The position numbers and the translations under genes were made by a program. From the NCBI GenBank assembly GCA_032718475.1, contig JAUCBJ010002523.1, positions 1 through 64,000 on the forward strand: 64,000 nucleotides of DNA, in the 5' to 3' direction. The notes beneath the pieces are model-generated. The model was not told the origin of the DNA, ran no database searches, and saw nothing but the letters and a program-made list of their open reading frames with translations. Shown one piece after another: positions 26,935-54,234 of this stretch (position 1 is its first letter; every line of letters starts with the position of its first letter). The DNA comes from Nemertoderma westbladi (Eukaryota; Animalia; Xenacoelomorpha).

Positions 26935-27145
26935 ACGTAAAAACTTTCTAAAATCCGACGCATTTTGATTAAATTACAGTAATGTAATATGCCTATTCAT
27001 ATTGGTACACATAAATCCGTAGGTAATTCTATTGGCGCAGTGGTCAGATGGTTAAGGCGTTGGTTACATTACAGATAGGTTACGAGTTCGAATCCCAGTC
27101 GGGAATTTGCATTTGTGGGCAATTTATTTTCATTTGATCTAATTA
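26935..27145. repeat. 211-bp direct repeat, left copy (candidate long TSD of the LINE)
   Basis: Appears identical to 31897-32107 and abuts the (TA)n 3' tail of the LINE. Confidence 0.92.
27034..27105 (+). pseudogene. tRNA-derived sequence (SINE head or tRNA pseudogene), copy 1
   Basis: A box TGGTCAGATGG (27041) and B box GAGTTCGAATCC (27084). The acceptor stem does not pair. Confidence 0.65.
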
Positions 27146-27639
27146 TATATATATATATAATTTATTGACGACTTGGATTATATAAACAGTATCAATAATT
27201 AAATACTCATCACAAAATAAACCGAGGTTGTCCATATTTAAGCAATTAGAAAATAATCACGAAATCACAAAATATTCTATAAATGCGGTATACACATAGA
27301 AGGAAGAGCTTTTAATACGTTACATAAATGATACAATTATTCTAGATCGACAAAGGACGGAACGACTTATAAGAGGATAACTTTAATACCTTTAATACGG
27401 AACTAAAAACTATTCACCAATACGTTGTAATACTTTTTACTGAGAAAAACGGTAAATTCATAAAGGGAAACGTTTAGCAACCAAAAACACAACAATATAA
27501 GGTATAGATATAATTATTTATTTGCACAGATAAAAAAAAAATGAATATTCTACTTGACATAGAGATTCTGAAATGTAGTACCAGTTAATCGGCCAAATAA
27601 AACAGGAAATACGAACCGATACCAAAGATCTGGGTGGGC

Positions 27640-30600: not shown

Positions 30601-30756
30601 CACCCGGAAATTAAAAATAGCTTTTACTTCAAACAGAGCTACTATATCATACTGTGAAAGTTTTTGCAATATAACAGAGTTGTGCAGTTTATCCCTGATA
30701 CCATCAATATTCCAACTAAGAAACTTCAACCGGTCAGATTTGTGATGAGCATTCAA
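27640..30756 (-). CDS. LINE ORF2: AP endonuclease + reverse transcriptase + C-terminal Cys/His motif
   Basis: SWNIDG, GDLNA, ELDRVL, SNHAG (APE); KAPGPDG, NYRGISV, FIDFRTAYDKV, GVLQGGPSS, LLMDD, YLYLG (RT); CPCGSIQDEAHLITTC. Confidence 0.95.
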   Translation of the reverse strand: MNAHHKSDRLKFLSWNIDGIRDKLHNSVILQKLSQYDIVALFEVKAIFNFRVSGFNVLRFPDVKTAHRGGVAVLVKNYLASSIICMNMEHDLISFKLDFAPNIHFYAVYIPPSNSPYFSSNIWSKLQAAIFLASTNSKFVLFGDLNAQCGVRLADLNTNEYWYHTPHDRTINAHGARLIQLCKDCSLVNLSYLETLNGSYFSGNLTFKRRSGYISELDRVLCSGDLISGFTDFNTLLDFDWPSNHAGVEFSLYITKFCFISSACLLERADLLGSYCHLLKNPCKPICAKKLYFDTSCVDTTKFQAILNKSLVNVDDLNIRMNINDLAATFTDSIYKAASEASVKHVHSYPRIPTSVPQWQVWQHMLDNCSAKDMWARIGWRGELNASPYNPSNSEIEPSEAEFATHFSSLLNPSGVNKSPDPPLLETDSCNNDLDSPISLSELKDVINVIKPGKAPGPDGISPGFFKLLPFTWILQLLSLLNLVFLTGAYPVLWGFSRLITVFKRGVKSQCSNYRGISVLNTIYKILDTIFFHRLISWRLPSCEQAGAIKGRGCLEQILTLRLLIDFAESKKHQLFIVFIDFRTAYDKVPRGKLFELLKSMGCSSRMLIMLQLMYSKTVSILGKSKINSRVGVLQGGPSSGYLFTMFLNPLSSALRCFTPDSFLNWLHILLLMDDSVILASSRSLCLAKMEKVLEYCGEYGMILNTKKTKFIVVGPASEANDKADLVLTVPSYSCDTVAIKNTDSYLYLGSPITQTGGSKTAIVLHAEEKLKQVSKFRAFIAKNYYSPFWLKLQVFRAAASSAILYGCETWITGDLAPVSKQYTEMLCLLMGVRPNVCRQILHIESNVPEPKPLILKRQYDFLCNMIEHEEIHKPLMMVLDQCMLHRTPMAGQVEYILSSKKDFVMDAMEKLKLNVRSEVDSTKKKLYQLYNPNLSPHICYITRKTFNEPDRIAWTRLRLGSTRLAVELGRWKKIPPDRRICPCGSIQDEAHLITTCSRIPRDPNLSWCSISDFMNNKDEAKVMEAVHLILLLAEENN

Positions 30757-31706
30757 AAATTCAGATTAAATTTGTCTATTATAACGTCGTCCTTTTTTAC
30801 AACTCGATGTACTGGATCATACGAGATAACGTGGCCTCTGTTTGCAGGATTCCCTTTTTCAAGCCTTTCAACTTCACGTAGACGGCCGATTTCTTTACGT
30901 ATAATAGGATGAACATCGGATTTGATAAATACTTTCCCAAAATTGTCATCATTCTTTAACTTTTTCAAAGCAGGGAATATCTTTCTGCGATCAGCTTCTG
31001 CCGAATTCTGAGACAGAGTAAGCAGAATGGGCCTTGGGTTAGGTTTATCAGGGACAAACTGACCAAGGCGCTCAACTTTGTAATTAGAAACTTTGATCCC
31101 GATTGCGCTAAAGATTGCATCGCATTGATCATTGTCTTTATCCTCGCTGGGCGGGTTGTTTTCAACGACCCCCCGTACAATAAGCTTTTGAATTCTCATT
31201 TGACGGTCAATGTACTCGCAAAACCGTTGTTGGGCTCCACATGTAGCACGGAGGTCGCAATTTTCTTGTTCAAGAGTGGTGACACGTGTTCCTAAGGCGC
31301 TTATGTGCTCGGTCATCATAGAGCTAAATATGGATTTCAGCTGACCTACAGAGAGCGAGCTCACTGAGGAGCTATCATCAATGGTGGGGGGGTGAAGGCC
31401 CGGAGACGGCGTGAAGTTCGGAGGACATGGAGCCGGCGGATAAGACTGAGGTGGTCCTGACCCAATAGGGTGTTGTTGCCAAATTGAGCGCTGGTCGGTA
31501 GTGAATCCAGGAGCTGTCTGACTGTAACTTGGCCAAACCTGAGTGGAATTTAACTGGGCATGTTGAGATTGGAGGGGCTGGGGCCCAGATACCGGTAGGC
31601 CTAAATCCGATAAAGATTGTGACCTACCAAGGAAGCATGCATCGCAAAGGCCACCTGGTTTTAATCGTGTTTGGTGAGCGTCACATCTTTTACAATTTCC
31701 CATTTC
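30753..31706 (-). CDS. LINE ORF1 (CxxC..CxxC, Pro/Gln-rich linker, coiled coil, RRM-like C-terminus)
   Basis: MGNCKRC..LCDAC; ALGTRVTTLEQENCDLR; KLIVRGVVE..VERLG..PRPILLTL. The frame is open from 31859; the ATG of MGNCKRC near 31703 is the likely start. Confidence 0.85.
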   Translation of the reverse strand, partial: EMGNCKRCDAHQTRLKPGGLCDACFLGRSQSLSDLGLPVSGPQPLQSQHAQLNSTQVWPSYSQTAPGFTTDQRSIWQQHPIGSGPPQSYPPAPCPPNFTPSPGLHPPTIDDSSSVSSLSVGQLKSIFSSMMTEHISALGTRVTTLEQENCDLRATCGAQQRFCEYIDRQMRIQKLIVRGVVENNPPSEDKDNDQCDAIFSAIGIKVSNYKVERLGQFVPDKPNPRPILLTLSQNSAEADRRKIFPALKKLKNDDNFGKVFIKSDVHPIIRKEIGRLREVERLEKGNPANRGHVISYDPVHRVVKKDDVIIDKFNLNF

Positions 31707-31896
31707 ACACAATTTCGAGCGTTCAGCGGTTGTCAATTGACCAACAGGTTCAACAATGAGCAACAATGAGCAAAATAACCGTAACCCAATATGTAATACA
31801 GTAATCCTCTCGTAAAATAATATGTATGTACTGATGCAGGATGCAGTTTTGATCACCAAATTCGTTTATAGGCCTATAAATCATGTAGTAAAAACT

Positions 31897-32107
31897 ACGT
31901 AAAAACTTTCTAAAATCCGACGCATTTTGATTAAATTACAGTAATGTAATATGCCTATTCATATTGGTACACATAAATCCGTAGGTAATTCTATTGGCGC
32001 AGTGGTCAGATGGTTAAGGCGTTGGTTACATTACAGATAGGTTACGAGTTCGAATCCCAGTCGGGAATTTGCATTTGTGGGCAATTTATTTTCATTTGAT
32101 CTAATTA
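31897..32107. repeat. 211-bp direct repeat, right copy, including tRNA-like copy 2 (31996-32067)
   Basis: Appears identical to 26935-27145. Confidence 0.92.
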
Positions 32108-32109
32108 GA

Positions 32110-32230
32110 TAAGCCAATGAGGTGCGTACAACGTATGGAACGATGAGTTGGGCCAATCATAGGGCATATAACATCTTATTGCTCCAATGTGAGGCCATGG
32201 AATGCTCTGGAAGATTCTAGCGGATTCTAT
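32110..32230 (+). promoter_or_regulatory. LTR-like promoter segment: three CCAAT boxes and a heat-shock-element-like array
   Basis: agccaatg, ggccaatc, ctccaatg; gGAAtgCTCtgGAAgaTTCtaGCGgaTTCt at 32199-32228. Confidence 0.4.
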
Positions 32231-33584: not shown

Positions 33585-34892
33585 CTAATCTCTTAAACAG
33601 CCTACCAATATACAATATCACAATCGAAATAATACTAGTACCTGTACTGCTGTAAGTACCGGTTTGGGTGGTTAGGTAGTTAGCCTACAGGTTACCGGTC
33701 GACCGGTACATGCAATAAAAAAACTAGAATAACTGTTATTGTTCGCGCTTTTAGACCTTTAGCAGTTTAACCCGCCAATTTTAGGTGTCTTCTAGGTTAT
33801 AAATCGACTTTAACCTATAACAAGTATTTGGTGCATATAAAGTTACATTAGCCGAAGCCAGCCTATGCGCGACCATTCACCCACGGTTAAGGGAGACTGG
33901 ATTCGGATGCTCTGACCTTATTGCGGTGTAGACTTACTGTATTATTCGATTGATCGTTAATATATAATCTCTGACAAATATTATTCACTTTTGGGAAATA
34001 TTAACAGTTCCTTTAGGACGTGGCGCTCTAAGTATGTAAACAGAGTTATGACTTACACTAAACACAACGGGATGGCTAATGATTTTCGTATAAAGCGCAT
34101 TCTTTAGGAAATGCTTTGTTATCGGTTACACTCCTGCACACTACCGCACACTGCTGCACACTGATCTGCCGACCTTCACTAAATTTGATCATATATAAGG
34201 AGAATAGCAACTGACACATGTAGGGATTATGAAATAGCATTCAATTCACTCCAAAACCACTATAATATAAGTCGCAGTTTCTACAGGTAACTGGTCCCTC
34301 TTACCTTCAGTATATCAAGAAGATTGGGGTTTTATGATTATTTATCGATATTCTCCAAATATAACAACATATCCATCAACTTATAACAATTAATAACCGA
34401 CAGTAAACAGAAGTAAAATAATGCGGTAGGACAAGTATGTATGTTCTGGTTTGTCCAGTTTGTATGGTTTGATTTGTTTGATAACAGTTAAACGTTCCTA
34501 TAATCAAAGCCTTCTAATGTTTGGCTAAAGTCTGAAACTCAGAATAATTCCAAAGCCGATGTTCTGGGGCTCAGGAAAAGGTAAACAAAAACCGTCATGC
34601 ATTGCGCGATTTCCCATAGGATTCTGTGCAAGATAAAATGAAAATCGCCCTGATTGGTCGAGCGAGCCGAACAAAGAAAGTTAAGAAAGCTCCACATCGA
34701 CATTAAATCAGCTGATAGATTTCGTCATCTGAGCTACACTGTATTAAGAGTATTTGGCGTATTGCGGCATAAAATGGCTTGTTATGTCCGCTAAAGTACA
34801 CATACAGAAAAAATGGCTTTTTATGTCCGATAAAACACCTACACAGTACTTTGCGGGAAAAATTATTAGTTATATCCGCAAAAGCCTTTACA
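33585..34892 (-). repeat. LTR copy (3' LTR of the minus-strand BEL/Pao element, truncated at its left end)
   Basis: 1308-bp near-identical match to 43061-44368. The minus strand begins TGTAAAGG and is preceded by the purine tract GGGAGCGG. Confidence 0.85.
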
Positions 34893-34970
34893 CCGCTCCC
34901 AGAAAATGGGATTTAATTCTATAAAATATAAAAAATCACAGTTTCTAAAATATAAAAATACTCTAATCAG

Positions 34971-36530
34971 TTAGTCTTTCTTACGCGAACGGCGTTTACG
35001 CAGTTTTTTGAGGCTAGCAAGAGTCATTTTCTCTTTGGGGCGAGCCACTTTACTAGGAGGGCTATAACTCCTGGGTGAAGGGTGCAATACAATTGCATCA
35101 GAAGGTTTAGGGTTACGGTCGGTGTATCCGCCAGTCGAGGTACCCGGTTGATCGGTATCAACCTCAGTGGAACAAGGTCGAACAACCTTGAGAGCGCGTT
35201 TTAAGACAGCAGCTCTTACTGGTCCCTGACGGGTCGTTTGCACGAAAGCGGTAGGTGGACCGTGTGTAGTGAGAAATTTCCTCGGTTTGATGATTCTTTC
35301 CAACTCGCGTTTTCAGGCTCTATCGGAATCGATATGCTTCTCCACGAGCTGATTTTCCTCCGCTTATCGTTGGAAGCATTCGTCCAAAACTCTTGCAGAG
35401 AGTAGGGTCGTCCAAGTTCGATATCTTCTTAGAGATTCTGGATTTCCCGATCGAACTGAGATAAAGCTTATTCGTTTACCGCTTGGACTTGCGGCTGCAA
35501 TTTACGTTTCTCCAAACAATCGTAGGTTCCTTTTCCGATCTTTTGTCGAATAGTGTCTAACGTGTTTTGTTCAACTCTCTCCTCCACCTCGGTGACAGGT
35601 TGTATCGGGGTTAGATCGGGACGATTATATGGGTTGAACGGCGATATTAGGTGTCCGCATCCCAATCCGGCTAGGTAAGATGGGCGAATATCTAGGGAGC
35701 CCACAACCGGAGTGCCACCGAATAATTGTTCGGGTAACACTAGATCTTTGAACAGTGAGTACAGTTCGGGAGGATCCGTGATACTATTAGGATCAAGAGT
35801 CTGAGGTCTCACTAGGGAGTAAGGAGGCCTGACCGAGTATTCCGGAACTCTGATCATAGGTTTATTTAAGGATCATTTGAGTCGAGCGAGCGTAGGTGAT
35901 ACATCGAACAAGTTTCGCTCGAAACTCCCGTAAATATAGCGAATAAAACTGTGTTTAGAGCAACGTCTCCGCGGATGTTTATGTCTTTCCATTTGTTGGT
36001 TGGGTCTTGGGCATTCATCGCAATAATACCAAAGACGCACGTCTTGTAGGGGAAACGCGGGTGATCTTTCTTCAGTTTTACAATGTTTCTCTCAAGAATT
36101 CCAAATATACATTGGAGTCACTGCGTTTATCCGGTTCTTTAACGTCTTCTCTTTTAAGTCGATTTCGAATAGAATTTTCGCATTCGATTCTCAGTTTATC
36201 GTTCTGACTCCGCTGGGTATGATATTTAAATAGGACCATTTCCCTTTCGGTGTCGACATCGTCCGTATCGTGTAAATCGATAGGATGACCAGTAGTTAAG
36301 AAGTCCATATGCGTACCATTACGATGCGTATAGCGAGCAGTGAATTTTCGATAGTCCAATTCAAGAGTGAGTTGCTCCTAGGACATTGGCGGTTCGATAT
36401 AACGACCATCGTCCTCCGTAGTAGTTGGACTAGCGTCGCCGCGTATTAAGCTATCAACAAACGCTTGCAACGGTAGAGTATATCGCTCCCTGATACCAAG
36501 ATCATCTTCTATCAACTCAGTCATAGCTGC
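34971..36530 (-). pseudogene. Fragmented ORF of unknown function next to the 3' LTR
   Basis: Three collinear minus-strand ORFs (36078-36359, 35468-35857, 34971-35303) in higher-GC sequence, ending in a basic tail (KKLRKRRSRKKD). Confidence 0.4.
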
Positions 36531-38519
36531 TATATGAGTTTATCAATATTATAATTAGTTATAATTAGGCTAGCGGGTGTCGCTGCCTACCCCTCACGGC
36601 CCCCAGACAGCGCAAGATCCTCAGCGCTGATGTACTGTCGCCGCTGTGCCTATCGCTAACATAGTAGCTGCACAACGACAACAACAACCAGCGCGTCACA
36701 GCAGAGTCACTCCTCTGTCCGTCCCAAGGGCTTAGATTTACTTCAGGTTCTTACTGCAGAGGTAGAGCTACTTTCACAACTGCGACTCGCTACTGTAAAC
36801 ACACTTTAGTAGTAACATTCACCTATAAACGCACAAATTCCACACAACTGTCAAAAACCGCACACATTCGGGCCATTTGTCCGTTATTCAAGTGCCTTCC
36901 AGAATGCCACATTATTATTATGTATCCTTGGATACTAGCAGTGTGCTATTTATTCCTTATGCTATTCAATGGGGCAAGCTTTTATTGTTCTTTTAACTCA
37001 CTTCTAATTCTAGCGTGGTTGTTGCCATGGTGACATTATGGAAAGCTAGCAGTAGAATTAGGGTAATTCTCATGCATACAGATCTGGGATGCTATTTAAT
37101 AGTAATTCTTTTAATTGTCAATATTCCTCTTTATACATGATTTTATGAATTTTATCGGCTATTGACTATATATTGGAGATTCTCGCACACTAATATACTT
37201 AATAGGGTGAATCTCCGCTCCCATGATCTATTAATTAATGGAATTTTGGGAATGTTATAAATTGTATAAAAATGACAATTTATCAAATTCATTAAAAGAG
37301 ATGAATTTAAATTTATTCCCGTAAATTTTATTATTTAATGTTGGAATAAGCACAATTTTTTTCCAGAGCATGTCTGGGGACTGGGATCCTTGATTCTAGG
37401 GAATTTGTCCTTTTAAGAGTATCGGTAAGTGCTATGATATCTTAATCGACTAGAATTTTAAAGGATCTAAAATTTAACAGATTTTAATTTATAGATTTTC
37501 TAGAGTTAACTTGTAAGTATTTACTCTATTGTATTTGCTTGACAGATTTTATAAATATTAATAGTTAATATTTAAGATGGGCACCAGTTTATTTCAGAAC
37601 ATGTCTGGGGACGTTAACCATTGATTCTAGAATTTTGTCTTTCAAGTATATCGGTGGGTGCCGCGATATCTTAATCGACTAGAATTACAGATGGTCAAAG
37701 GGTTCAACAGATTGATTTTGCGTTTTACGCTACTGTTAAAGGGACATCACGCTACTATATGTATTATTTAATATACGGTATGAGAGCAATATTGCAAGAA
37801 GCAATGTCAGTGAGAAGAGGCAAGTCGTTTCCAAGGTCTACCCAGAGCTTGGTTTAGCCAAGACACGAGGATCTGAACTTTGCATTCCTAATACTCTACT
37901 TACCAATAATACTTGAATATAGTAGGAGCTTTATTGTACTTTAATAAGTACGGACATTTCATCTTACTGTAGTCACGCATTTATAATGTAATATGGACAG
38001 TAAGGAAAGAGAAAAAGAATTATTTCTCGCCGTTGCGCTAAATATATATAATATAAGTAATTAAGTAATAAAGACTAATATATTCTAATATCTTTATTAC
38101 TTTAAATTGGTGATGGGGTATAGTAATACATTGCTTATAATTTTCTACAGTATGCTTTTATGCATTAGTGTGGTGGATCAGCTGTTTTACGGCAATACAG
38201 AAATCCGATCATACCGGTTACTGTTGTCTGATTCATAACCTTAACTGCCTAAGGCCTAATATGCCGTTAATATTGCATATATATATATACATACCGGTAC
38301 CGTGAGTTTGCATGTTGACCGTTTACTGGTTTTGTTATAAACTGATGCCGACTGTTTGTTATTGTCTAACTGATAATATCGCTTAATTGCAAATGCCTGC
38401 TTTGCTGTTATATATATCATATTGTTATTCTTATATCTGTATATTGCTTTGATTGCCAAACTGATTGACTGGGGAATTGCCAATTGCAACCTTCTGACCT
38501 TTCTTTACTGCTTTCTTTC

Positions 38520-39901
38520 TTTCTATAAAATTGGACTGATATTTGCTTGAACAAGCGCCTCATGCGCATTTTGGCCGATGAGTATCTGTACCCCTGGGTA
38601 GTCGGTGTTGAATCTAGGTATCTCATACTGCTGGGTGAAATCGTCTTCATCCCAGTTATAAGGTTCCACTTGGCTGGTAGCAAAGTTCTTTATTGCCACC
38701 ATTTTTACTGACCTTATACTGTGTTCTCCTAGTTCATCCTGGGGGGTGGACAACGTGCCTACATAGTAGTCTGTAGCTACTGTAGATTTCCAAACCTGCA
38801 TAATTCCTGAAAAGTTCAACTTAGTTCGGAACTTGGGTTGTCCAGCACAGATGTCTTCGGCTGGTTCTTTGTCGATGAATGTTCCTGTGCTGCTGGAGTC
38901 AAGGAGGGCATTCACTATATAGCTCTTTTTTATCCCGTGGACTCTCAACTATACTACGGGAAATTCCCGGATTCCTACGTTGGAAGTTGGCGCTTTCCAA
39001 GATGGTTGCCGGTCCGGAATAGTTAGGGGGAGCTCGCTATTGGTTTCAGTCTCATACATAAGCGCTCGATACACCGCGGTGTTTGTCATATAACAGGATT
39101 CATTTTCGTCGGAGAATTTGTCTGTGTAGAATCCTTCCATCTCAGAGCTGTGGTCAGTGTCGTTCACATCACTGAATTGGACATGTAGTTCGGGCTCACT
39201 TACCTGACTCGTGCGGGTTCTTTCAAATTCTGTGTGCAGCAAGATATGATGTTTCGCGCCGCACTTAGCACACCTAGCATCTGAGTAACAGGTCCGCCGT
39301 TGGTATCCTCGTCTGAGACAATTATAACACAACCGCTTATCCCACATGACTTCGCGTCTATCCTTTAAGGATTTCTTTAAGAATTCATCACACACACTTA
39401 AACGATGGGGCCCGTCGCACAATGCACATTTTGGTTTGATGTTACTTACTTTACCTCGTTCTCGTTGTAACTCGTTGTACTTCTCACCCCATCAATTTGA
39501 TGTTCTTCCACCGCAATCAATACTCTAGTGAGTACGGCTTCAGGAAGAATGAGAAGTGGATCCGAATAAACTGCATCTGCCATCTTTGCTCCGCGCTCAG
39601 GTGGCAACTCTACAGTATCTGAACTCCTGGAGCTATCGGGCCGCTGAGGAATAAGTTCTCGGTTCGAGTGTTGCTGCTGTTTAACAGCTGCCTCTTGGTC
39701 CCGCTTGACTTGAGCCCGAGTGCCTATGATAGACCTATGGTGCTTTACTAGCCTAGGGTCTGATACTACTACTGGAGGGATGACCTTTCTTACAGTAGGA
39801 GGGGACTTGGACTTCAGTCTCAAATGTTCGGCACTCCTGTCGGAGTCGCAGACTGTTTTTTCTAGGAGACTATCTGAAGGAGTTTGCTTTTTGTCAGCCA
39901 T
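38520..39901 (-). pseudogene. BEL/Pao gag (triple zinc knuckle) and aspartic protease remnant
   Basis: CDGPHRLSVC..CYNCLRRGY..C..CAKCGAKHHILLH; VNALLDSSSTGTFI; VQILIGQN. In-frame stop and frameshifts are present. Confidence 0.88.
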
Positions 39902-41333
39902 GTTTGTTTGTACAGTTGAATGCCTACTACTATACTGCAGTTAAAGCAAGTCTAGTAATTCAGTATCAACTGTTAGCCTAGTAATTAATTACCGATATCG
40001 TTACTCAATGTAACACGATATATATATAATATATTAGAATACCGGTATACACTTATAGTATATATATAAGTATTATTACAGACTAGGGTTTGTCACAGAA
40101 TACCGGTATATAATTTCAGCACAAATATATATAAATATATAATAAGCCTACCGTGAATACCGGTATACAGCTTACACTTATAGTATATATAAGTATAATT
40201 ATGGACTAAAATTAATTACAGAATACTGGTATATAATTTCAGCATAAATTTATACAAATAAATATAATAAGCCTATAGTAAATACTGGTATGTCAATTAT
40301 TTTATAATAACTAAATTTCTGAATTTTAGGATTACTTTCCTTTACTTTGTTACTGTTATTAAGCAGTAGTCTAACTGATATTAAGACCTAATTGATGTAT
40401 GGCAGGCCTACTATTTTATAAATTGGTTTGAGTTGATTTATAATATATATATACCCTTATAATGGGTTTTTTGACAATATTTGAAATAAATGTTATTATT
40501 TCTGGTAAGGAGTCACTACACAGAAGCTGTACGCTCTCAGTGAAGTGCTACTTGTTGGACACTAAAACAAATAATTATACTTGACTAAGTTACTTATTAC
40601 TACAAATTACGTACAATTACAGGTGAGATTACAATCTCTAAATAAACACAAAAATTACACGTACAAATTTTAGGGTAATTTTACAGGAAATCTACAAACC
40701 AGCCTAACAAGGGGTTAGAGTTTCTGGTTATTACAACGGACAGGATACTACGGTATTTGAAAATAATAAAGCAGTAGAAAATAAATTGCGTTGTCCAGAT
40801 AAGAAAATACCACCGTCTGACGACTTATAGTCTTTAGCTGTACAGCTCTATAAGTACTACATTATGTACCCGGAATGTCCCTACCTAGAAGTTAATTACC
40901 GCAGCCAACCAGAGCTAACGTACCTATTAACCACTTTACAACACAAATATACTGCCTACACACTAATTACCTTCGGAAACCACTGTACACTAAACCCTAA
41001 ATTAGGTACAAGTACTTATACAACAAATAACCAGCAGTTAAATATACTTGTATAGCTAAAAGAACCACGGTATCTGCTGGAGTGACTAGAGCATAAAATC
41101 ACCAGTCTTTACCTACGCCAAACAGCCCTGATGTAGTACCGGGGTTAATTTAACTATAACGGTATGTATAACAAGCACAATTACTGTAGGAATAAACTTG
41201 GGGGTGTGTTGTGTATGTTGCGAATAATCGCATAAACTCTGAATAATAAATATTACGCTACCCGTACAGACTACACAAACAAAATACAAACCAAATGCTG
41301 GCAGACTACTATCAAGCCTAAATAAACTAGGTT

Positions 41334-41379
41334 AGCGCTACTGATGAGGCCTGTCAGGCCGAAACGTGCGTATAGCGCT
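41334..41379 (+). ncRNA. Minimal type-I hammerhead ribozyme, copy 1
   Basis: Stem I AGCGCTA/TAGCGCT; core CTGATGA; stem II GGCCT-gtc-AGGCC; GAAA; short stem III AC-gtgc-GT; predicted cleavage after GUA (41372). Confidence 0.93.
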
Positions 41380-41651
41380 GGTTCAACCCCCGGTGACGCG
41401 CTCCCATTTTTTCCACTTCTGAACAAACCCATAATATTACACCTTTAATTACAGTTGCAACAGCTCATCTCCAATTTATTTAATTAATATCACCTGGCAG
41501 CAATACCGAGCTGAATATTTATTTATTTGTACTTCCCTCCTGTTTCACTCTAGCATACTTGAGGCCGTTAGGTCCGCTGTTAGAGATAGAATATTTGCAA
41601 CTTAAGACTGCCCGTTCAATAGAAGTGGATTAGGTGGGACTGCGAGTGTCA

Positions 41652-41752
41652 GGGGCTAGTGGCTGAGCTGGTTAGCGCTACTGATGAGGCCTGTCAGGCC
41701 GAAACGTGCGTATAGCGCTGGTTCAACCCCCGGTGACGCGCTCCCATTTTTT
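41652..41752 (+). promoter_or_regulatory. tRNA-like Pol III cassette enclosing the hammerhead (repeated at +340 and +680)
   Basis: A box TGGCTGAGCTGG (41660-41671), B box GGTTCAACCCC (41720-41730), T6 (41747-41752). Confidence 0.7.
41674..41719 (+). ncRNA. Hammerhead ribozyme, copy 2
   Basis: Identical to copy 1. Confidence 0.93.
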
Positions 41753-42013
41753 CCACTTCTGAACAAACCCATAATATTACAACTTTAATTACAGTTGCAA
41801 CAGCTCATCTCCAATTTATCTAATTAATATCACCTGGCAGCAATACCGAGCTGAATATTTATTTATTTGTACTTCCCTCCTGTTTCACTCTAGCATACTT
41901 GAGGCCGTTAGGTCCGCTGTTAGAGATAGAATATTTGCAACTTAAGACTGCCCGTTCAATAGAAGTGGATTAGGTGGGACTGCGAGTGTCAGGGGCTAGT
42001 GGCTGAGCTGGTT

Positions 42014-42059
42014 AGCGCTACTGATGAGGCCTGTCAGGCCGAAACGTGCGTATAGCGCT
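42014..42059 (+). ncRNA. Hammerhead ribozyme, copy 3
   Basis: Identical to copy 1. Confidence 0.93.
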
Positions 42060-42353
42060 GGTTCAACCCCCGGTGACGCGCTCCCATTTTTTCCACTTCT
42101 GAACAAACCCATAATATTACACCTTTAATTACAGTTGCAACAGCTCATCTCCAATTTATTTAATTAATATCACCTGGCAGCAATACCGAGCTGAATATTT
42201 ATTTATTTGTACTTCCCTCCTGTTTCACTCTAGCATACTTGAGGCCGTTAGGTCCGCTGTTAGAGATAGAATATTTGCAACTTAAGACTGCCCGTTCAAT
42301 AGAAGTGGATTAGGTGGGACTGCGAGTGTCAGGGGCTAGTGGCTGAGCTGGTT

Positions 42354-42399
42354 AGCGCTACTGATGAGGCCTGTCAGGACGAAACGTGCATATAGCGCT
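42354..42399 (+). ncRNA. Hammerhead ribozyme, copy 4 (mutated)
   Basis: Core is intact, but stem II has a mismatch (aggac) and GUA has become AUA. Confidence 0.75.
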
Positions 42400-43060
42400 G
42401 GTTCAACCCCCGGTGACGCGCTCCCATTTTTTCCACTTCTGAACAATAATATTACACCTTTAATTACAGTTGCAACAGCTCATCTCCAATTTATTTAATT
42501 AATATCACCTGGCAGCAATACCGAGCTGAATATTTATTTATTTGTACTTCCCTCCTGTTTCACTCTAGCATACTTGAGGCCGTTAGGTCCGCTGTTAGAG
42601 ATAGAATATTTGCAACTTAAGACTGCCCATTCAATAGAAGTGGATTAGGTGGAACCGAAACATGTGTATAGCGCTGGTTCAACCCCCGGTGACGCGCTCC
42701 CATTTTTTCCACTTCTGAACAAACCCATAATATTACACCTTTAAATAAACTACAGTATATGCAGACTCCGAAATGGTTAGTTCGTATGCGTTCTAACCGA
42801 GTAGTACGACTTATTCTTTCAGAGGGGATTTACCTTACAACACTGGATGCCCCCACCTTCCTAACTAGTATTTTATCGGACATACACTCTACACACACTG
42901 CAATCTCTTCGGACCTGACAACAGCCAGACAACAATCCAGCCTACAAATTATTTGTACAATTTGAGCGGGCTTACACGCCTTCTGCTCAATATAAACTTA
43001 CAGATAAATAAAACTGACAGAAATAAATAAGCTCCAAAAGAAACAAGGGGTGTACAGTCC

Positions 43061-44368
43061 CTAATCTCTTAAACAGCCTACCAATATACAATATCACAAT
43101 CGAAATAATACTAGTACCTGTACTGCTGTAAGTACCGGTTTGGGTGGTTAGGTAGTTAGCCTACAGGTTACCGGTCGACCGGTACATGCAATAAAAAAAC
43201 TAGAATAACTGTTATTGTTCGCGCTTTTAGACCTTTAGCAGTTTAACCCGCCAATTTTAGGTGTCTTCTAGGTTATAAATCGACTTTAACCTATAACAAG
43301 TATTTGGTGCATATAAAGTTACATTAGCCGAAGCCAGCCTATGCGCGACCATTCACCCACGGTTAAGGGAGACTGGATTCGGATGCTCTGACCTTATTGC
43401 GGTGTAGACTTACTGTATTATTCGATTGATCGTTAATATATAATCTCTGACAAATATTATTCACTTTTGGGAAATATTAACAGTTCCTTTAGGACGTGGC
43501 GCTCTAAGTATGTAAACAGAGTTATGACTTACACTAAACACAACGGGATGGCTAATGATTTTCGTATAAAGCGCATTCTTTAGGAAATGCTTTGTTATCG
43601 GTTACACTCCTGCACACTACCGCACACTGCTGCACACTGATCTGCCGACCTTCACTAAATTTGATCATATATAAGGAGAATAGCAACTGACACATGTAGG
43701 GATTATGAAATAGCATTCAATTCACTCCAAAACCACTATAATATAAGTCGCAGTTTCTACAGGTAACTGGTCCCTCTTACCTTCAGTATATCAAGAAGAT
43801 TGGGGTTTTATGATTATTTATCGATATTCTCCAAATATAACAACATATCCATCAACTTATAACAATTAATAACCGACAGTAAACAGAAGTAAAATAATGC
43901 GGTAGGACAAGTATGTATGTTCTGGTTTGTCCAGTTTGTATGGTTTGATTTGTTTGATAACAGTTAAACGTTCCTATAATCAAAGCCTTCTAATGTTTGG
44001 CTAAAGTCTGAAACTCAGAATAATTCCAAAGCCGATGTTCTGGGGCTCAGGAAAAGGTAAACAAAAACCGTCATGCATTGCGCGATTTCCCATAGGATTC
44101 TGTGCAAGATAAAATGAAAATCGCCCTGATTGGTCGAGCGAGCCGAACAAAGAAAGTTAAGAAAGCTCCACATCGACATTAAATCAGCTGATAGATTTCG
44201 TCATCTGAGCTACACTGTATTAAGAGTATTTGGCGTATTGCAGCATAAAATGGCTTGTTATGTCCGCTAAAGTACACATACAGAAAAAATGGCTTTTTAT
44301 GTCCGCTAAAACACCTACACAGTACTTTGCGGGAAAAATGATTAGTTATATCCGCAAAAGCCTTTACA
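43061..44368 (-). repeat. LTR copy (5' LTR; true inner boundary unresolved)
   Basis: Matches 33585-34892 with only a few differences. No PBS could be identified. Confidence 0.85.
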
Positions 44369-47300
44369 AATGATAATTAATTGTTGTGAGTATGTGCTAG
44401 ATATAGCAGTAATAGTGCTATTCGGTTTGTAACATTATGAAACAATGTCTCATGTATACACTGTAGTGTTACAACTATGTGTAGGTAAGTCAATGTGTCA
44501 GTGTTAATATAGTATATTACATTTTTTATAATATATTGGTTTTACAGAGTGATGCTGGGTTTTAGCACTATTAATTTGACATTTTTTTATTGCGAAATTA
44601 GATTCACTGAAAAATTCCATGAATAAACTTTGCGAGACATTCCTAAACTATTCTTTGACAACAAATTGTCTATCTATCTATTTTGAGTAAAAAATGTGAA
44701 AATTAAAATGCAAGTCTTAAAACTGAGTAAGTACTGTTATATTTATTTAAAAATATGAAATTTCTTCAGTAAATGCGAGACTGCTGTAATCATCTATTTT
44801 TTTTAGTAAAAAATAATAAACTTACAGTATATATGTTGAAAACCAAGCATCATGCTACAGAAAAAATATTAACTTAAAATTCTTCACAAACTTATTAACT
44901 GAAAACAGTATCTAGCATATATCCAACGTTTAATTTTACATTTTTTTTTAGTCAAAGGTAGATTCACTGACATTGTTCTAGAACTTAATAGAAATCTGAG
45001 CTAGATATTGAAGCACTATCTTAAGGTAGGTGTGACAATGTGTGAAATATATTTCATGTATTATGATCAAGTGAGATATTGTTATGATTATGAAAGCTAG
45101 TATGTTTGTTTAGTTAATAAAATAATAATAAGGTTATGAAGTCATATTATAAGATTATAAGGTCATTCCATAATCGATACACAAATAGTATGTTACAACT
45201 GTAAATACAAGTGTTAACTACGTATTTGTCCTGGAAAATAAATAATCGACACCCAGGAAGATGTTCTATTTACACCACCTAGAGAAATGAATAATTTGGC
45301 AATTATCGGAGATGAAATACACTCTGTTCCCGCTGGGCGGCTTTATCCTGAATAAATTTAGAAACGCCTTCAAAGGGAGTTAATAAGTTCGTGAAGAATT
45401 TTAAGTAAATAGTATATAAGTTGATATTGTTTCTATAGGGTGATGTTTGGTTTTAAACATATATACTGTAAGGTTATTATTTTTTACTAAAAAAATAGCT
45501 GATTACAACAGACTCATATTTACTGAAGAAATTATTTCATATTTTTGAATAAATATAACAGTACTTACTCAGTTTTAAGGCTTACATTTTAATTTTCAAA
45601 TTTTTTACTCAAAATTGATAGATAGACAGTTTGTTGTCAAAGAATAGTTGAGGAATGTCTCGCAAAGTTTATTCGTGGAATTTTTCAGTGAATCTAATTT
45701 TGCAATAAAAAAAAATGTTAAATTAATAGCGCAAAACCCTGCATCACTCTGTAGAACCAATATCAACTCATAAGATCTAGTTTGTAACGCTGCTTCATCT
45801 ACTCAAAACTGTTTTTTCTCACGTTCAAACGTAATTAACCTGTCATTATTGTACTATGATTAATATAATCTATACACAAATAGTATGTTACAACTGTAAA
45901 TAAGTGTTTACTACATATTTGTCCTGGAAAATAAATAATTTACACTCAGGAAGATGTTCTACAATTTTTGTACAGTGGCCTATTATCAATCCCTCTGGTA
46001 TTGACTTATGTAAAGAATCTAAATTTAGTACACCGAGCATGATATAACCATCAGTTTCAGGTTCGAGCACCGAATCTGTGATACTACTACTACTAGGTCG
46101 AGTGGACTCGGACAGTGGAAATGAGATCCTTCCAGGCTTCCCGATTCTCCATAGTTGTTGCAATTTCGTTTCTCCCAAGTTCAGTATCCCTTTCAAGTTG
46201 ATCTATATATGTTATGGCCGGTCGTCCACGACTACGCTTTCCATGAGTTAGTTGCCAGAGAAGTAGATCTGGTATGACTTTACTTCGCCAGCGGTGCCCA
46301 CTGAATCTTAATCTGCGTTCACGGAGGGTGGTTGATACAGGTGGTATTGTACCATAAAGCTCGGCGTTTGTCATGTGTTGTCTCCAGCTGATTTTAGGGC
46401 TGCCCTTAGTAGTCTTATGTAGCAACCATCAATTCGTTGTTCAAGTGATTTAGTCAGTGTCCAGGTCTCACCCCCGTATAAAAATACACTTTCTTTCGAA
46501 TGACAGGTTAATTACGTTTGAATATAAGATGGAATGATAATTAATTGTTGTGAGTATGTGCTAGATATAGCAGTAATAGTGCTATTCGGTTTGTAACATT
46601 ATGAAACATGGTCTCATGTATACACTGTAGTGTTACAACTATGTATAGGTAAGTCAATGTGTCAGTGTTAATATAGTATATTAAATTTTTTATAATATAT
46701 TGGTTCTACAGAGTGATGCTGGGTTTTAGCACTATTAATTTGACATTTCTTTATTGCGATATTAGATTCACTGAAAAATTCCATGAATAAACTTTGCGAG
46801 ACATTCCTTAACTATTCTTTGACAACAAATTGTCTATCTATCTATTTTGAGTAAAAAATGTGAAAATTAAAATGCAAGTCTTAAAACTGAGTAAGTACTG
46901 TTATATTTATTTAAAAATATGAAATTTCTTCAGTAAATGCGAGACTTCTGTAATCATCTATTTTTTTTAGTAAAAAATAATAAACTTACAGTATATATGT
47001 TGAAAACCAAGGATCATGCTACAGAAAAAATATTAACTTAAAATTCTTCACAAACTTATTAACTGAAAACAGTATCTAACATATATCCAACGTTTAATTT
47101 TACATTTTTTTTTTAGTCAAAGGTAGATTCACTGACATTGTTCTAGAACTTAATAGAAATCTGAGCTAGAAATAGAAGCACTATCTTAAGGCAGGTGTGA
47201 CAATGTGTGAAATATATTTCATGTATTATGATCAAGTGAGATATTGTTATGATTATGAAAGCTAGTATGTTTGTTTAGTTAATAAAATAATAATAAGGTT

Positions 47301-48125
47301 ATGAAGTCATATTATAAGATTATAAGGTCATTCCATAATCGATACACAAATAGTATGTTACAATTGTAAATACAAGTGTTAACTACGTATTTGTCCTGGA
47401 AAATAAATAATCGACACCCAGGAAGATGTTCTATTTACACCACCTAGAGAAATGAATAATTTGGCAATTATCGGAGATGAAATACACTCTGTTCCCGCTG
47501 GGTGGCTTTATCCTGAATAAATTTAGAAACGCCTTCAAAGGGAGTTAATAAGTTCGTGAAGAATTTTAAGTAAATAGTATATAAGTTGATATTGTTTCTA
47601 TAGGGTTATGTTTGGTTTTAAACATATATACTGTAAGGTTATTATTTTTTACTAAAAAAATAGCTGATTACAACAGACTCACATTTACTGAAGAAATTTC
47701 ATATTTTTGAATAAATATAACAGTACTTACTCAGTTTTAAGGCTTACATTTTAATTTTCACATTTTTTACTCAAAATTGATAGATAGACAGTTTGTTGTC
47801 AAAGAATAGTTGAGGAATGTCCTGCAAAGTTTATTCGTGGAATTTTTCAGTGAATCTAATTTTGCAATAAAAAAAAATGTTAAATTAATAGCGCAAAACC
47901 CTGCATCACTCTGTAGAACCAATATCAACTCATAAGATCTAGTTTGTAACGCTGCTTCATCTACTCAAAACTGTTTTTTCTCACGTTCAAACGTAATTAA
48001 CCTGTCATTATTGTACTATGATTAATATAATCTATACACAAATAGTATGTTACAACTGTAAATTAAGTGTTTACTACATATTTGTCCTGGAAAATAAATA
48101 ATTGACACACAGGAAGATGTTCTAT
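44369..48125. repeat. Two ~1.6-kb direct copies (44369-45962 and 46534-48123), each containing a foldback element with ~310-bp inverted arms
   Basis: Both copies start aatgataattaattgttgtgag. About 44533-44850 is the reverse complement of about 45448-45763 (tacagagtgatgc...gcatcactctgta). A further inverted partial copy lies at about 48470-48690. Confidence 0.88.
46083..46495 (-). mobile_element. RTE-clade LINE 3' fragment
   Basis: ISWRQHMTNAELYG..RERRLRFSGH..LLLWQLTHGKRSRGRP; the stop codon is followed by (TAG)n. Confidence 0.9.
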
Positions 48126-50122
48126 TTACACCACCTAGATAAATGAATAATTTGACAATTATCAGTGATGAAATACACTCTGCTCCCACTGGACGGGTTT
48201 ATCCTGAATAAATTGAGAAACGCCTTCAAAGGGAACGGGAATAACAAGTATCGAGAAACAGCTTCATAACTTAATTATTATTATTTTATTAACTAAACAT
48301 ACTAGCTTTCATAATCATAACAATATCTCACTTGATCACAATACATCATATATATTTCACACATTTTTTGAAATTATTTTGTCGCGAAATTAAAAGCAAT
48401 CGTAAAGTAACAACTCCTGCCTGAACTGCTGCAGCAGCTAGCTGTGTAGGAATGTTTGAGTCATTAAATTATTAACTATACAAACATACTAGCTTTCATA
48501 ATCATAACAATATCTCACTTGATCATAATACATGAAATATATTTCACACATTGTCACACTTACCTTAAGATAGTGCTTCAATGTCTAGCTCAGATTTCTA
48601 TTAAGTTCTAGAACAATGTCAGTGAATCTACCTTTGACTAAAAAAAAATGTAAAATTAAACGTTGGATATATGCTAGATACTGTTTTCAGTTAACCTTTT
48701 AGCTGCCAAGTTCCCATTTTGTTCCCTCAAATTTAGATGTAAGCCAGAGCTACAAAATTTTATAGAATTTGACAAAAACACGTTTAGTGTATTAATTTAT
48801 TATGTGTGTTATAATATATTATGTAATAAATGAAAAAATAAAAAAAGTGTATTTTTGGTAAAAAATGGATACTGGGGCACCATTTCTAAAGTAACACTTT
48901 ATTAAAATAAGAACACCATTAATTGATGTAAATATGTTTGCTGCATAAAGCTAACATGTTATACTATATATTATAATAGAAATGTCAAATTTTGTAATAT
49001 TCGTTCAGGGTGCAAAAATGCAATTAAAAATTTTGGGAACAAAATGGGAACTTGGCCACTAAAGGGGCTTTATTATAATTATAAAGTAATAAAATTATTC
49101 CTGAAACTTTTATTTCTGCTGAAGTTCAGACCTATCAGCCTGTGTTCCTGTGTTTATCATATCTAAAAACTGGCTTTTCCTAAGACCAAGCCTTATCTAA
49201 GTCAAACACTACACTACAGCATCAAGCAAGACCATACTGCCATAGTCACAGACACCTACTGACTATACTGACAGTAGTAGGCGCTACTACCAGACTACTA
49301 CAGTACTAACTGTACTGCCGGTAGCTAACTGTACTACAACTGTACTTAGTACTAACTGTACTACCGCTACCGGTAGGCTTGTCTTCAAGTACGTACATTT
49401 CATCTGACAGTGTAGCACCCTGTCTGAAGGATGCGAAAAATCAATGGAGCCGGAGTTTTTTTTATTAGTTTTTATTATTTCTAGTATATTGGAGCCTTTG
49501 GGACGGACAGTGGAGTGACTCGCGCTGGTTATTGTTATTGTTGTGTAGCTACTACGTTGGCGAGAGGCACAGTGACGACAGTACTGTACACCAGCGCTGA
49601 GGATCTCTGGCTGTCCAGGGGCTGGTGCGGGGACCATATAGGCAGCCACGCCCGCTAGCCTTTATTATTATCAATAACTTCGATTGCTGTTCTTTATAAT
49701 GCAGTAATGGCGGCTTGTAGTTCCTTTTATGGTCGTAATAAAGGAAATAAACATTCAGAAGCGAACGACGTTCATCACACTGCAAGATAGATAGATAGAT
49801 AGATAGATTTATTTATACATTATGTAAAAACAATAACAAATACACCAAACAATGTACCGGTATAAAGGTATTGTCCAACATAACATATAGGATTACCCCT
49901 AAAGCTTTGCAGCTTATTTCCAAGGGGGTCCTTTATGTTACTTGGTTACAAATACAATATTACACTACGCTAACCTAAAACCAATATAAAACGTAATTAC
50001 ACTATGTACATGTACAACTTTACCGAGAGCGTGACAATGCCCGACTCAACGATAAAGATGTAATGTACAGAACAATTTATTATAAAACGTAATTACAGTA
50101 TAAATAGTAAATAATTAATAAA

Positions 50123-53100
50123 CTAATAACTTACTGTAGGACTATTGTACCTATTTTTACATTGCACACGGAGATGAGATTTAACTGCAGATTTAAAAGA
50201 ATGTTGATTATTTAGGTTTTTAATTTCATTAGGCAGAGCGTTCCAATTTTTTATGCCGTTAAAAAAGAAAGTATCAGATTCAAAGGATTTACAATTCGGG
50301 AGGTAGAAGTTTGAAGCACTAGCTCTGGTACTGTAAGAGTGTCTATCGCGTACTCTGTTGAATTTTTGTTTTAGGTAATTGGGACATTTACCATTATACA
50401 CTTTATGCACATGGTTAAGGCGTAGCTGCTTAACTCTACTATCTAAGTTAAGTAGTCCAGATTCAGAAAAGTCATCTGGAGTTAGGTGGTGCCTAGGTTT
50501 GTAGTCTTTAATAAATCGTACTACTTTATTCTGAGCTACTTGTAATTTACATTTAAGCTGTTTGGTTAAGCCTTCATACCAAGAAGAGCACGCATAGTCC
50601 ATGTGACACTGTATTAAAGAAGAGCAAAGTAACTTGCGGGAGTCGGTGTTCAAACTATTTTTATTTCTGTATAGAAACCTAAGCCTACTGTTAACTTTCG
50701 AGAAAATATTTTTCACTGTACTTTCTCCTGATAAGCAGTTATCCAATGTGGCGCCTAAATATTTAATTTCCTTTTTATTTTCAATCTTATGTCCATTACT
50801 AGTGACTTCAAACTTAGTTACCTTCTTTAACTTTCTTTTGGAACCAAACAAAATACTTTCAGTTTTACCGTAGTGAATGGATAGCTTATTATCAACCAAC
50901 CACTCATTACAGGATTCTAGAACTGCACTTAACTTTTGGGAAATATGGATAGGATCTTTATGAGAGAAAATAAGAGCACTGTCGTCGGCATATAAAATGA
51001 GTTTAAAATCGGGATCTATACTACTTATCATATCATTTACATAGCATACAAAAAGCAGAGGACCTAATATACTACCTTGCGGTACACCACAGGTAATCTC
51101 TTGTACAGTAGACAGTGATTTGCTAATGACTACAGTTTGACCTCTGTCTGACAGGTAGGACTTGAACCAGTCTATAGAACCTACACCCATCAGGCCTAAC
51201 TTACCAAGCAGAATTTTGTGATCTACAGTATCGAAAGCCTTTTGTAGGTCCAACATTACCATACCAGTATATAAACCCTTTGCGTTATTACATCTAATTG
51301 TATCAGTTAAGTTAATAAGGCAGGTGTCTGTAGAATATGATTTACGAAAACCGGACTGAAGTTCATAGATCAGATTTAGCCTACTAAGATGTGCCTCCAG
51401 CTGTAGAAAAACAGAACGTTCTAGAATTTTAGATACAATACTTAAGATACTAACAGGTCTGTAATTACAGGGTTCTACTTTACTATTCTTTTTATACAGA
51501 GGAACAACCTTAGCTAATTTCAGTTCGTCTGGTACTACATTATCTACGATAGAGTAATTAATAATAAAAGTAATAGGCACTTTAAGTACTTCAGCACCAT
51601 CCTTAAGAAAACGGGCAGGTATTAGATCTAGACCGGTACTTTTTGAGGCTGATAGGCTAAGTAGATTTTTAAAAACGAAACCCTCAGAAACGGGTTTTAA
51701 AAATAACTTTTCTGAATTTTGTAACTTTTCTAAATAAAAATTATTTAGAGTTTCGGACCCTATACTATATTTATTACTTGATAACGGTAATTTCTTAACT
51801 AAATTAGAGGCAACATTAGTAAAATAATTATTAAATAAATTATTAACTAGAGTATGATCATGAATCAGCTCACCGTTATCTTGCAGAACAATATTCGATT
51901 TAGATTTAAGGTTTTTATAACCTAAAGATTTTAGGGTAGACCATAGACTTTTTGGATTATCTTTATTCTCACTTATTTTGTTGTACAAATATTCAGATTT
52001 AGCTTTTTTTATTTCCCGTTGGACAAGGTTTCTATATTTGCAGTAATTATTATAATCAGCTAAAACACGGTATTTCCTAAATTTATACAAATAGTTATCT
52101 CTTTCTCTGATATTACTAAGAATACCCGAGGTCATCCAGGGCTCAGTGCGTTGTTTAAGACTAATTTCTTTAATTGGTGCTACAGTATTAAGTGCCTTTA
52201 AAAATATATCTTTAAAAACAGTGTACGCAAGGTTAATGTCAGCGGCCTTAAAACAGGGTTCCCATTCAGAATTAACTAACAAACTTAAAAAGCGTTCCTT
52301 GCTGTAATTTTTCATAGACCTAACTGTTACTGTTTTATGATCCCCGAAAAAAGATTTTTGTGTCTTTCTTGTGCAAAAAACTATAAAATGATCGCTTAGA
52401 CCTATAGGTAAAACCCCAGATTGTGAAATAATATCGGTATTATTACAAAGGATGTGATCTAGTAAAGTAGAAGTTTTACTGGTAATTCTGGTAGAATCTC
52501 GAATAATTTGTTTTAAACCAAACAAATTTAAAATACTTTGGTACTGTTTACAGATGGGGGATGCTTTGTGATGGTAACAGATATTAAAATCACCTAAGAA
52601 ATATATTTCACAGTCTGACCTAAGATTACATAAAATTGTATTTTCAAAATTTTGCAAAAAATCTGATTGTTTAGGGGGCCGATATAAAGTACCGATTAAA
52701 ATAGGTTTAGTTTTAGGAAGTAAAAGTTCCACCAGTAAAACTTCGTCACAAGTCTCTAAATCTTCCCTACGATTAAAAGCTAAATCACATCGAATGTAAG
52801 TACAGACACCACCACCGTGTCTGTCCCTATCCTTACGTAAAACTACGTAATTATCAATATAAATTTCTCCATCAGAAACACTATCATCGAGCCAAGTTTC
52901 AGAGATTGTTAAAACTGCTGGGTTGGATTTATTGATTAAAATACGAATTTCGGAAAGTTTTGGAAGCAGAGATCGTGCGTTTAAGTGCAAAAAATGCAGA
53001 CCTTTTTTCTTAAAAAAATTAAAAGTTTCACTCTCAGCATCACTTGGAGTTTGCAGAGGCGATGTGAGAAATGAATCGTCGGTTTCTGATTCTAAAATTG

Positions 53101-53331
53101 TATCATGAAAGGGAAGTTCGGTAAAAATACAGCTATTGCAGAGAAAACTTGGTTCAAGATTGTTTCTGGTGGAGAATAAATTACTGCGTTTCCTACGGTA
53201 ACATTTTAAATGTACAAATGTGTCACAACTCTCGCATTGGACGATCTTACTCCGAGAGTTTGTTCCTCGTTGACAGACGGGACAGTTGATCTTTGGGGCC
53301 CGCGTCCTGCTGGGTCCTGGGTTGGTCTCAA
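50123..53331 (-). CDS. LINE polyprotein: PHD finger, AP endonuclease, reverse transcriptase (its 5' part lies at 54235-54525, beyond the MITE)
   Basis: CPVC..CESC..H..C..CNSC; HLNARSL, SETWL, GDFN, SDH; NYRPVSIL, LDLQKAFDTVDH, GVPQGSILGP, YADD, KYLG. Confidence 0.95.
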
Positions 53332-54234
53332 CCCAGTGAAAAGTGCGCAAGCGTATCGCAAGCGTGCAACGCAGGCGTATCTCATGTGATTCCCAAGAGT
53401 TATGGCCCGACCTTTACGCAAGCGATCTACTTGAGTTATGTCACATAAATATCGCAACAACTTGCATTCAGTCGCATAAAACTCACATGCGATTCACTTG
53501 CGACTTTCAAGCGTCATGGCGCATAAATATCGCAAAAATCTACTGGTTGTGATTTTTGTGTAATATATTGAGACCTTTTGTGGCAGAAAATATGATACAG
53601 TAGTTGATTATTCCACTACTGTTTTATACTATTGGCTTCCATATCATCTGCCTACTGTACTTACCTTACATTACATTACATTACATTACATTACACTCTC
53701 TAGACTTAGAACATTAGACATGCTGTATGAATCAATACTAGAAATGGTTGGTTATATACAGGATAATACAAATAGATTAAAACAACCATGATACACTTTT
53801 AACTATTCCCTATAATTTTCAATTCTATAAAATATATTAATATAATCTCTGTATTCGACAGCCATATTAGATAATTCGTATTCATCCATTTTATATTTTA
53901 AAACTATTTATTTCTTGATAGGCAACTTTATTTTAATTAATATTCTTTAGTGTAATTAAAAACATGCGATTCGCATGGGAATTAACTCTTGAGAATCTCA
54001 TGGTGTAAAACATGCGTAAAATAAGCGTTAAATGAGGTGTGATTCGCATGCGGTTTTCATGCACGGAATCACATGCGTAAAATAAGTTGTGAATCGCATG
54101 CGTGGAATCGCTTCCCTATTTTACATGTGATTCACATGCGAATCACACGAGTTTTATCGCTATTTATTGAGCCGCAATAAAAACGCATGACGCTTTAAAA
54201 TCACTTGCGATACGCATGCGCATTTTTCACTGGG
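53332..54234. mobile_element. Non-autonomous CACTA/EnSpm-type DNA transposon (MITE)
   Basis: TIRs CCCAGTGAAAA.TGCGCA.GCGTATCGCAAG at both ends, 2-bp TSD AA, subterminal gcgattcgcatg-like repeats and internal (ttaca)n. Confidence 0.85.

Follow-up and report, generated by a model that had tools for sequence, protein, structure and literature searches.

A retrozyme-like hammerhead array with predicted Pol III boxes in Nemertoderma westbladi and its possible route of insertion

How does a run of head-to-tail hammerhead units come to lie inside another mobile element? This question is raised by a tandem array in a 64,000-nucleotide stretch of DNA from Nemertoderma westbladi (contig JAUCBJ010002523.1, positions 1 to 64,000, forward strand), which was analyzed as a whole and is called the window below. 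An initial annotation of the window had read the array as a multimeric 340-bp hammerhead repeat that was inserted in one event and copied from a circular RNA. The published retrozyme model leaves open which polymerase transcribes such repeats, which enzyme mobilizes them and whether their arrays copy circles. The family described here gives a handle on all three through its predicted Pol III boxes, its Penelope-like AC-rich 3' end and its unevenly aged units. Coordinates of the features are given in Table 1.

Table 1. Features of the array and its host element, in window coordinates
Feature	Position	Strand	Remarks
Host, defective LTR element	33585..44368	-	direct repeats of 1308 bp, with 3 differing sites
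Left target-duplication copy	41319..41329	+	AT-rich, 8-11 bp
Unit 1	41330..41669	+	starts at 5' edge of hammerhead helix I; without an A box of its own
Unit 1 hammerhead	41334..41379	+	predicted cut after 41372
A-box motif	41660..41671	+	also 42000-42011, 42340-42351
Unit 2	41670..42009	+	2 substitutions, both non-CpG
Unit 2 hammerhead	41675-41718	+	predicted cut after 41712; sequence same as unit 1 motif
B-box motif	41720..41730	+	also 41380, 42060, 42400, 42676
CCA then T6	41744..41752	+	predicted Pol III terminator
Unit 3	42010..42349	+	identical to unit 1
Unit 4	42350..42654	+	3 substitutions, 5-nt deletion; ends at 59-nt deletion
Partial unit	42655..42741	+	87 nt, unit positions 30-116; 2 further substitutions
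Right target-duplication copy	42742..42752	+	first 3 nt match unit too

The array had been described as about four head-to-tail units plus a partial one. Analysis with TRF bore this out (period 340, 3.9 copies, 98% matches at 41330-42652), and the array consists of three complete 340-bp units, one damaged unit and one partial unit between two 11-bp repeats. The 59-nt deletion after unit 4 takes out the next A box and the 5' half of the next hammerhead. As had been claimed, the array contains no ORF; its longest stop-free frame is 56 aa and its longest ATG frame is 38 aa. The flanking 11-mer occurs exactly twice in the window. However, 3 nt at the right junction fit either the end of the element or the beginning of the duplication, which makes the duplication one of 8-11 bp rather than the 11 bp first given.

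The unit was present in five of nine listed public runs, and contigs of four runs (X1, X2, X4 and X5) were compared. In all four, an empty-site joint connects 41318 to 42742, skipping 1423 positions with 11 shared letters, and in X1 and X5 this joint is flanked by sides of 56 and 78 nt. These empty sites belong to paralogues of the host repeat and do not imply alleles. Because the 11-mer is single in these copies, which is the result that the initial annotation had called for, the array is an insertion with target duplication; paralogous empty sites are sufficient evidence that insertion duplicated the 11-mer. In other host-repeat copies, approximately 289 bp around the empty site are present in tandem (joint 42952 to 41254 in four runs; 41254-42952).

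The host is a high-copy repeat, which we take to be BEL-like from three zinc knuckles and a protease-like motif (38526-39940). Its gag-like frames gave no Pfam match, and no alignment was obtained when two BEL-like frames were compared with each other. The right repeat is 308 bp away from the array, which lies approximately 1.4 kb upstream of the gag-like frames. It is antisense in the host, so the predicted ribozyme would spare host RNA.

A type I hammerhead motif occupies unit positions 5-50, with a predicted cut after position 43. Helix I has seven Watson-Crick pairs and four possible G-U pairs, helix II has 4 bp, and helix III has 2 bp with a tetraloop. With a 131-nt query, positions 1-45 of the 45 in model RF00163 were aligned at 23.2 bits (E 0.00081), a score below the gathering score of 34. 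An Rfam scan of the whole window at gathering score gave no match, and a scan of 1.7 kb around the array gave only type III hammerhead matches (E 0.49). By sequence, hammerheads are intact in units 1-3 only; in unit 4 one helix II pair and one helix III pair are broken, and the 5' half of the motif is missing from the partial unit. In folding predictions for five sequence contexts, the active hammerhead fold lies 2.1-5.1 kcal/mol above the minimum. The helix III 8-mer is self-complementary (eight of eight pairs, -8.8 kcal/mol), and a double hammerhead through self-paired helix III is possible as modeled. Because only one of nine predicted Xenopus elements is described as cleaving (bioRxiv 10.64898/2026.07.22.740005), activity of the predicted hammerhead here is not to be assumed. 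Joints ending at 41708-41711, near the predicted cut, were considered as cut-site evidence and rejected, since the filler includes hammerhead letters and 41708 is a site where reference and family disagree.

The unit also contains motifs that we take, from their consensus, to be the A and B boxes of a Pol III promoter. The order in the unit is A box, hammerhead, B box and CCA-T6, and the distance from A box to B box is 61 nt by the scan's measure. A pair of boxes at working distance arose in just 35 of 20000 shuffles. T6 is the sole run of at least five T on the + strand of the unit and, as had been pointed out before, it means that a multimer RNA must be a read-through product. The predicted Pol III start may lie anywhere in unit positions 315-324, and unit 1 starts 18 nt past a G-run taken as this start. 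A tRNA pseudogene at 41644-41744 was called by ARAGORN only when the threshold was set to 85, a setting at which 14 of 300 shuffles scored too, and there was no Rfam tRNA match in the array. Past the boxes, the sequence makes a weak case for tRNA ancestry. The putative Pol III product of approximately 100 nt folds no better than shuffles (z -0.42).

Judged by these sequence features, the array is one copy of a multi-copy metazoan non-LTR retrozyme family resembling schistosome Sm-alpha, in keeping with the class first assigned to it. Non-LTR retrozymes are described as tandem units of 150-450 bp with type I hammerheads and no ORF (PMC7229834; PMC7761336; bioRxiv 10.64898/2026.07.22.740005). 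The locus matches these descriptions in its 340-bp tandem units, its canonical type I hammerhead, the lack of an ORF and of LTR features, a target duplication exceeding 4 bp, intact hammerheads in two or more consecutive units and its multi-copy state; a hammerhead with a 2-bp helix III and a tetraloop is also like those described in invertebrate retrozymes. By contrast, section 9 of one account has retrozymes seemingly without a promoter and without a motif pointing to a partner (PMC7761336), whereas this unit has A and B boxes, T6 and a preferred 3' end. The class itself is already known, and the variation lies in the boxes around the hammerhead, the T6 and the preferred 3' end.

Sm-alpha and Sj-alpha of Schistosoma are described as combining a tRNA-related Pol III promoter with a type I hammerhead, often in tandem (PMC6765202, PMC2770079), and a cut Sm-alpha monomer is described as losing its usable promoter, hence the need for tandems (PMC6765202). 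The unit studied here is like Sm-alpha in having promoter boxes together with a hammerhead whose cut would split the promoter and leave tandems to rebuild it. In the review description of Sm-alpha, the promoter comes first and then the hammerhead, whereas here, provisionally, the hammerhead lies between the A and B boxes and is followed by T6. A hammerhead between A and B boxes was undescribed in the literature titles and abstracts that were searched, a scope outside which lie the primary Sm-alpha description, supplements and Repbase. The TRIMp3 elements Helenus, Ajax and Cassandra are similar in carrying small-RNA-gene Pol III boxes inside the repeat of a non-autonomous element, but they are LTR elements with short duplications and no hammerhead in the descriptions at hand (PMC10886601).

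Other copies of the family bear on the ends of the array. Contigs aligned to one unit numbered 2005 in X2, 1014 in X4, 83 in X5 and one in X1, counts per run that give no copy number, and their identity to the unit ranged from below 90% to above 99%. Among 18 of 428 loose-end rows, which are no census, long 3' flanks unlike one another and seen in several contigs start at 41781 in 12 contigs of X2 and nine of X4; past this point the flanks have a median of 135 nt with an agreement of 0.51 in X2, and of 255 nt with an agreement of 0.49 in X4. The same 18 rows include another 3' end at 41732 in three contigs of X5, and 5' loose ends that either scatter or reflect family variants. Owing to a base at 41782 that is private to the reference, the true end of the family is at unit positions 113-119, and the array's own 3' end, at unit positions 116-119, agrees with this. 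Flanks at the family 3' ends are AT-rich. Permuted ends had been taken as a sign of a circle, a reading that finds no support at the 3' side, where the array stops at the end preferred by its family.

At least one copy is a head-only monomer: record 16 of X4, a contig of 708 nt, holds unit positions 329 to 112 only, which is about the span from the predicted start to the shared 3' end. Record 1 of X1 forms a closed loop of 371 nt and is distinct from the array at family positions, and record 17 of X4 crosses unit position 116, so tandem copies exist elsewhere too. The initial annotation had said that only monomers with fixed ends at other loci would point to an ordinary SINE; the comparison supports half of this, with such a monomer found and tandems found as well. 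In the 30 family variant rows at a level of at least 10%, the B box, T6, CUGAUGA and GAAA are all untouched, the single A-box variant retains the purine, and there are changes in hammerhead loops 2 and 3. A C>T change at 41700, a CpG site, accounts for approximately one-fifth of X2 depth and turns the conserved first helix II pair into G-U. The joint 41639 to 41710, seen in X2 and X4, would fit this array's 59-nt deletion but was rejected as evidence of it, given sides of only 21-22 nt and the fact that one run may be the source sample. Summed depth in X5 is greater over the promoter-hammerhead head, which is no measure of copy number. A deep contig in X5 shares only this head (41653-41732), carries a helix I insertion of 4 nt and diverges afterwards, retaining the CCA and a T run despite the divergence; it is likely a second subfamily. 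A search with an 18-nt pattern gave 14 metagenome loci, whose matches to the unit were only 18-34 nt long, and 0 viral loci.

CpG transitions are a mark of methylated DNA. Five of the seven substitutions in the array fall in the last 28% of its length (p=0.02), and four of these five are CpG transitions. None of 39 CpGs has decayed in units 1-3 compared with four of 19 in the last 1.3 units, a difference (Fisher p=0.009) that rests on only four events. Because CpG decay is confined to the last 1.3 units, the 3' units have been DNA for longer, and a single circle copied once, which would give evenly aged units, is no explanation for this pattern. The uneven ages are explained if a read-through multimer came from an older or mixed array, if the template was switched at the deletion, or if local duplication followed later. 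Later duplication, conversion or assembly polishing could account for the identity of units 1 and 3.

The reading that we prefer, with a probability of roughly 55%, is that the array is a non-coding, multi-copy hammerhead repeat that was target-primed into AT-rich DNA by a borrowed, likely Penelope-type enzyme. Priming would likely have been from a preferred internal site, and the template RNA would likely have been several units long rather than a single circle copied repeatedly. The repeat inserted into a high-copy element with a duplication of 8-11 bp, and within the limits of the contigs its other copies have a 3' end in common, differ in their 5' ends and are tandem or head-only. The preferred 3' end lies approximately 33 nt beyond T6, so the template would have run past T6, as a read-through RNA of Pol II or of a leaky Pol III. 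It would have been uncut, or re-ligated at the hammerhead. Reverse transcription would then have proceeded from unit position ~116 leftwards for approximately four units; either the source array was mixed beforehand, or the template was switched at the 59-nt deletion. A cut between the A and B boxes would leave a split promoter in the cut monomer; only tandem or circle-derived copies would restore it, which would favor arrays.

The 3' end of the array is AC-rich, lies 73 nt past the predicted cut and has no poly-A tail. By analogy, the closest fit to this end is the priming of the anole Penelope enzyme, which is described as cutting AT-rich DNA, using mostly uncut RNA as template and priming inside its RNA at an AC-rich stretch (PMC11167929). 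Reckoned from the text of that study, the anole start is 85-92 nt past the hammerhead cut (PMC11167929). This resemblance keeps a Penelope-type partner, which had been suggested from the outset, as the best candidate. With partial tandems, 5' ends that vary, AT-rich targets, an internal 3' end rich in AC shortly past the hammerhead and occasional inversions, Poseidon (Anolis carolinensis, PMC11167929) and Chlamys/MRC1 (10.1101/2021.04.23.441226) as they are described are consistent with what the contigs and the 18 loose-end rows suggest for this family. In our contigs, an opposite-strand joint 41598/41685, away from the reference edge, and a joint 41566 to 41710 carrying inverted filler, with the inversion read by eye, fit the Penelope-type inversions described in 10.1101/2021.04.23.441226. 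Unlike the Penelope-like elements in these descriptions, the array has no ORF and has a canonical rather than a minimal hammerhead, and no autonomous partner was found in the window: a scan of 15 of its 18 long frames and 68 of its 80 short frames, the others being in satellite, in TA repeat or in the two LINEs, gave no GIY-YIG/Penelope ORF. The AC-rich end is predicted to be mostly unpaired, with no clear stem-loop.

The best of the alternatives, and in our view still an unlikely one, is the standard retrozyme model in which a single 340-nt circular RNA is copied by rolling circle in one event. This would give a head-to-tail, non-integer array with one duplication, and units 1-4 have in common two loop variants (41695 and 41708) that are rare in the family. 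Retrozyme circles are reported from coral, mussel and axolotl (PMC7229834), and a fixed internal start suits a circular template equally well. The closed 371-nt contig also favors a circle, although X1 covers the flanks too and its RNA label is a guess, for which reasons this run was rejected as evidence of expression; among the runs listed, none on record as RNA contains the unit. Against a circle stand the unequal ages of the units, with four CpG transitions arising in DNA, and a 5' end that lies, like that of a near-full-length linear RNA, just 18 nt from the predicted Pol III start, a proximity that is one case with an estimated chance of approximately 1 in 17. In addition, the predicted 340-nt circle is 61% paired at -88.3 kcal/mol (z -1.2 against 100 shuffles) and is not unusually stable; a highly self-paired circle is the expectation for non-LTR retrozymes. 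Of the original claim that the array arose in one event from one circle, the insertion with duplication stands and the circle fits poorly with CpG decay in the last 1.3 units. By analogy with other retrozymes, circles may occur in the cell; they are not shown by this locus.

Rather than arriving as four units, a shorter copy of approximately 1.3-2.3 units might have been retro-inserted and aged, after which its 5' unit was amplified locally by unequal exchange. Local amplification has been proposed for retrozyme arrays (bioRxiv 10.64898/2026.07.22.740005), and it accounts for near-identical units 1-3 next to a decayed 3' end. However, the amplified unit should share the decay of unit 4, and 0 of 13 CpGs at that rate gives 0.046. 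We therefore regard this history as doubtful and place it after the copying of a circle. A more elaborate proposal is equally doubtful: the element would be a retrozyme in which the ribozyme replaces the anticodon arm in its own tRNA-type promoter. Its Pol III hammerhead RNA of approximately 100 nt, ending at T6 and unable to transpose, would pair through the self-complementary helix III with long read-through RNAs and cut them in trans. In this way it would set the balance of circles, 125-bp head-only copies and 340-bp arrays, all from one Penelope-type internal start.

The length of the duplication suits LINE insertion, and the array could be an ordinary tRNA-derived SINE that a LINE mobilized and in which the hammerhead was only carried along. 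The rarity of such a box pair in shuffles, the head-only monomer and the presence of two LINEs in the window are consistent with this. By contrast, the junction has no A-rich or simple-repeat tail, a terminator follows immediately after the B box, and other copies have tandem junctions. There is also no similarity to the 3' ends of the window's two LINEs, the best match between these and the array being 27 nt (E 0.01), antisense within a LINE ORF. Taken together, a LINE-moved SINE appears improbable. Least credible of all is a piece of satellite array moved as DNA, by an extrachromosomal circle or a repair patch, which would yield units of mixed age and decayed CpGs with no need for RNA and would suit the 3-nt microhomology at the right junction, but for which a clean duplication and a 3' end common to copies are unexpected.

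The neighborhood of the array is a repeat-dense stretch. A 20-bp satellite with approximately 559 copies and 91% matches fills 1-11208, 30 kb from the array. Two 215-bp copies (26935-27149 and 31897-32111), 99.5% identical, flank the LINE at 27640-31865 on either side; they carry A and B boxes and are tRNA-SINE-like, with ARAGORN calls only at threshold 80. The LINE frame at 50123-53413 (- strand) is open over 1096 aa, with PHD, endonuclease and RT domains. Among the matches listed, its relatives are mostly at most 66% identical over the RT region, and the only named relative of a window LINE among 120 matches listed is a sea-cucumber protein (57%). Broken BEL/Pao pol pieces at 55231-57512 (- strand), with Peptidase_A17, an integrase zinc finger and DUF5641, are distinct from the host element. 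Three tandem copies of approximately 1.55-1.6 kb, 95-99% alike, occupy 57754-62514, and each has one loose hammerhead-core-like motif (58282, 59816 and 61425) without convincing helices. Another such motif at ~62650-62690 (- strand) has a 3-bp helix II, no clear cut site and no Rfam hammerhead match, and is possibly a decayed Penelope-type end. Finally, a direct duplication of 1.6 kb that contains nested inverted repeats (44369-48694) starts exactly at the end of the right host repeat.
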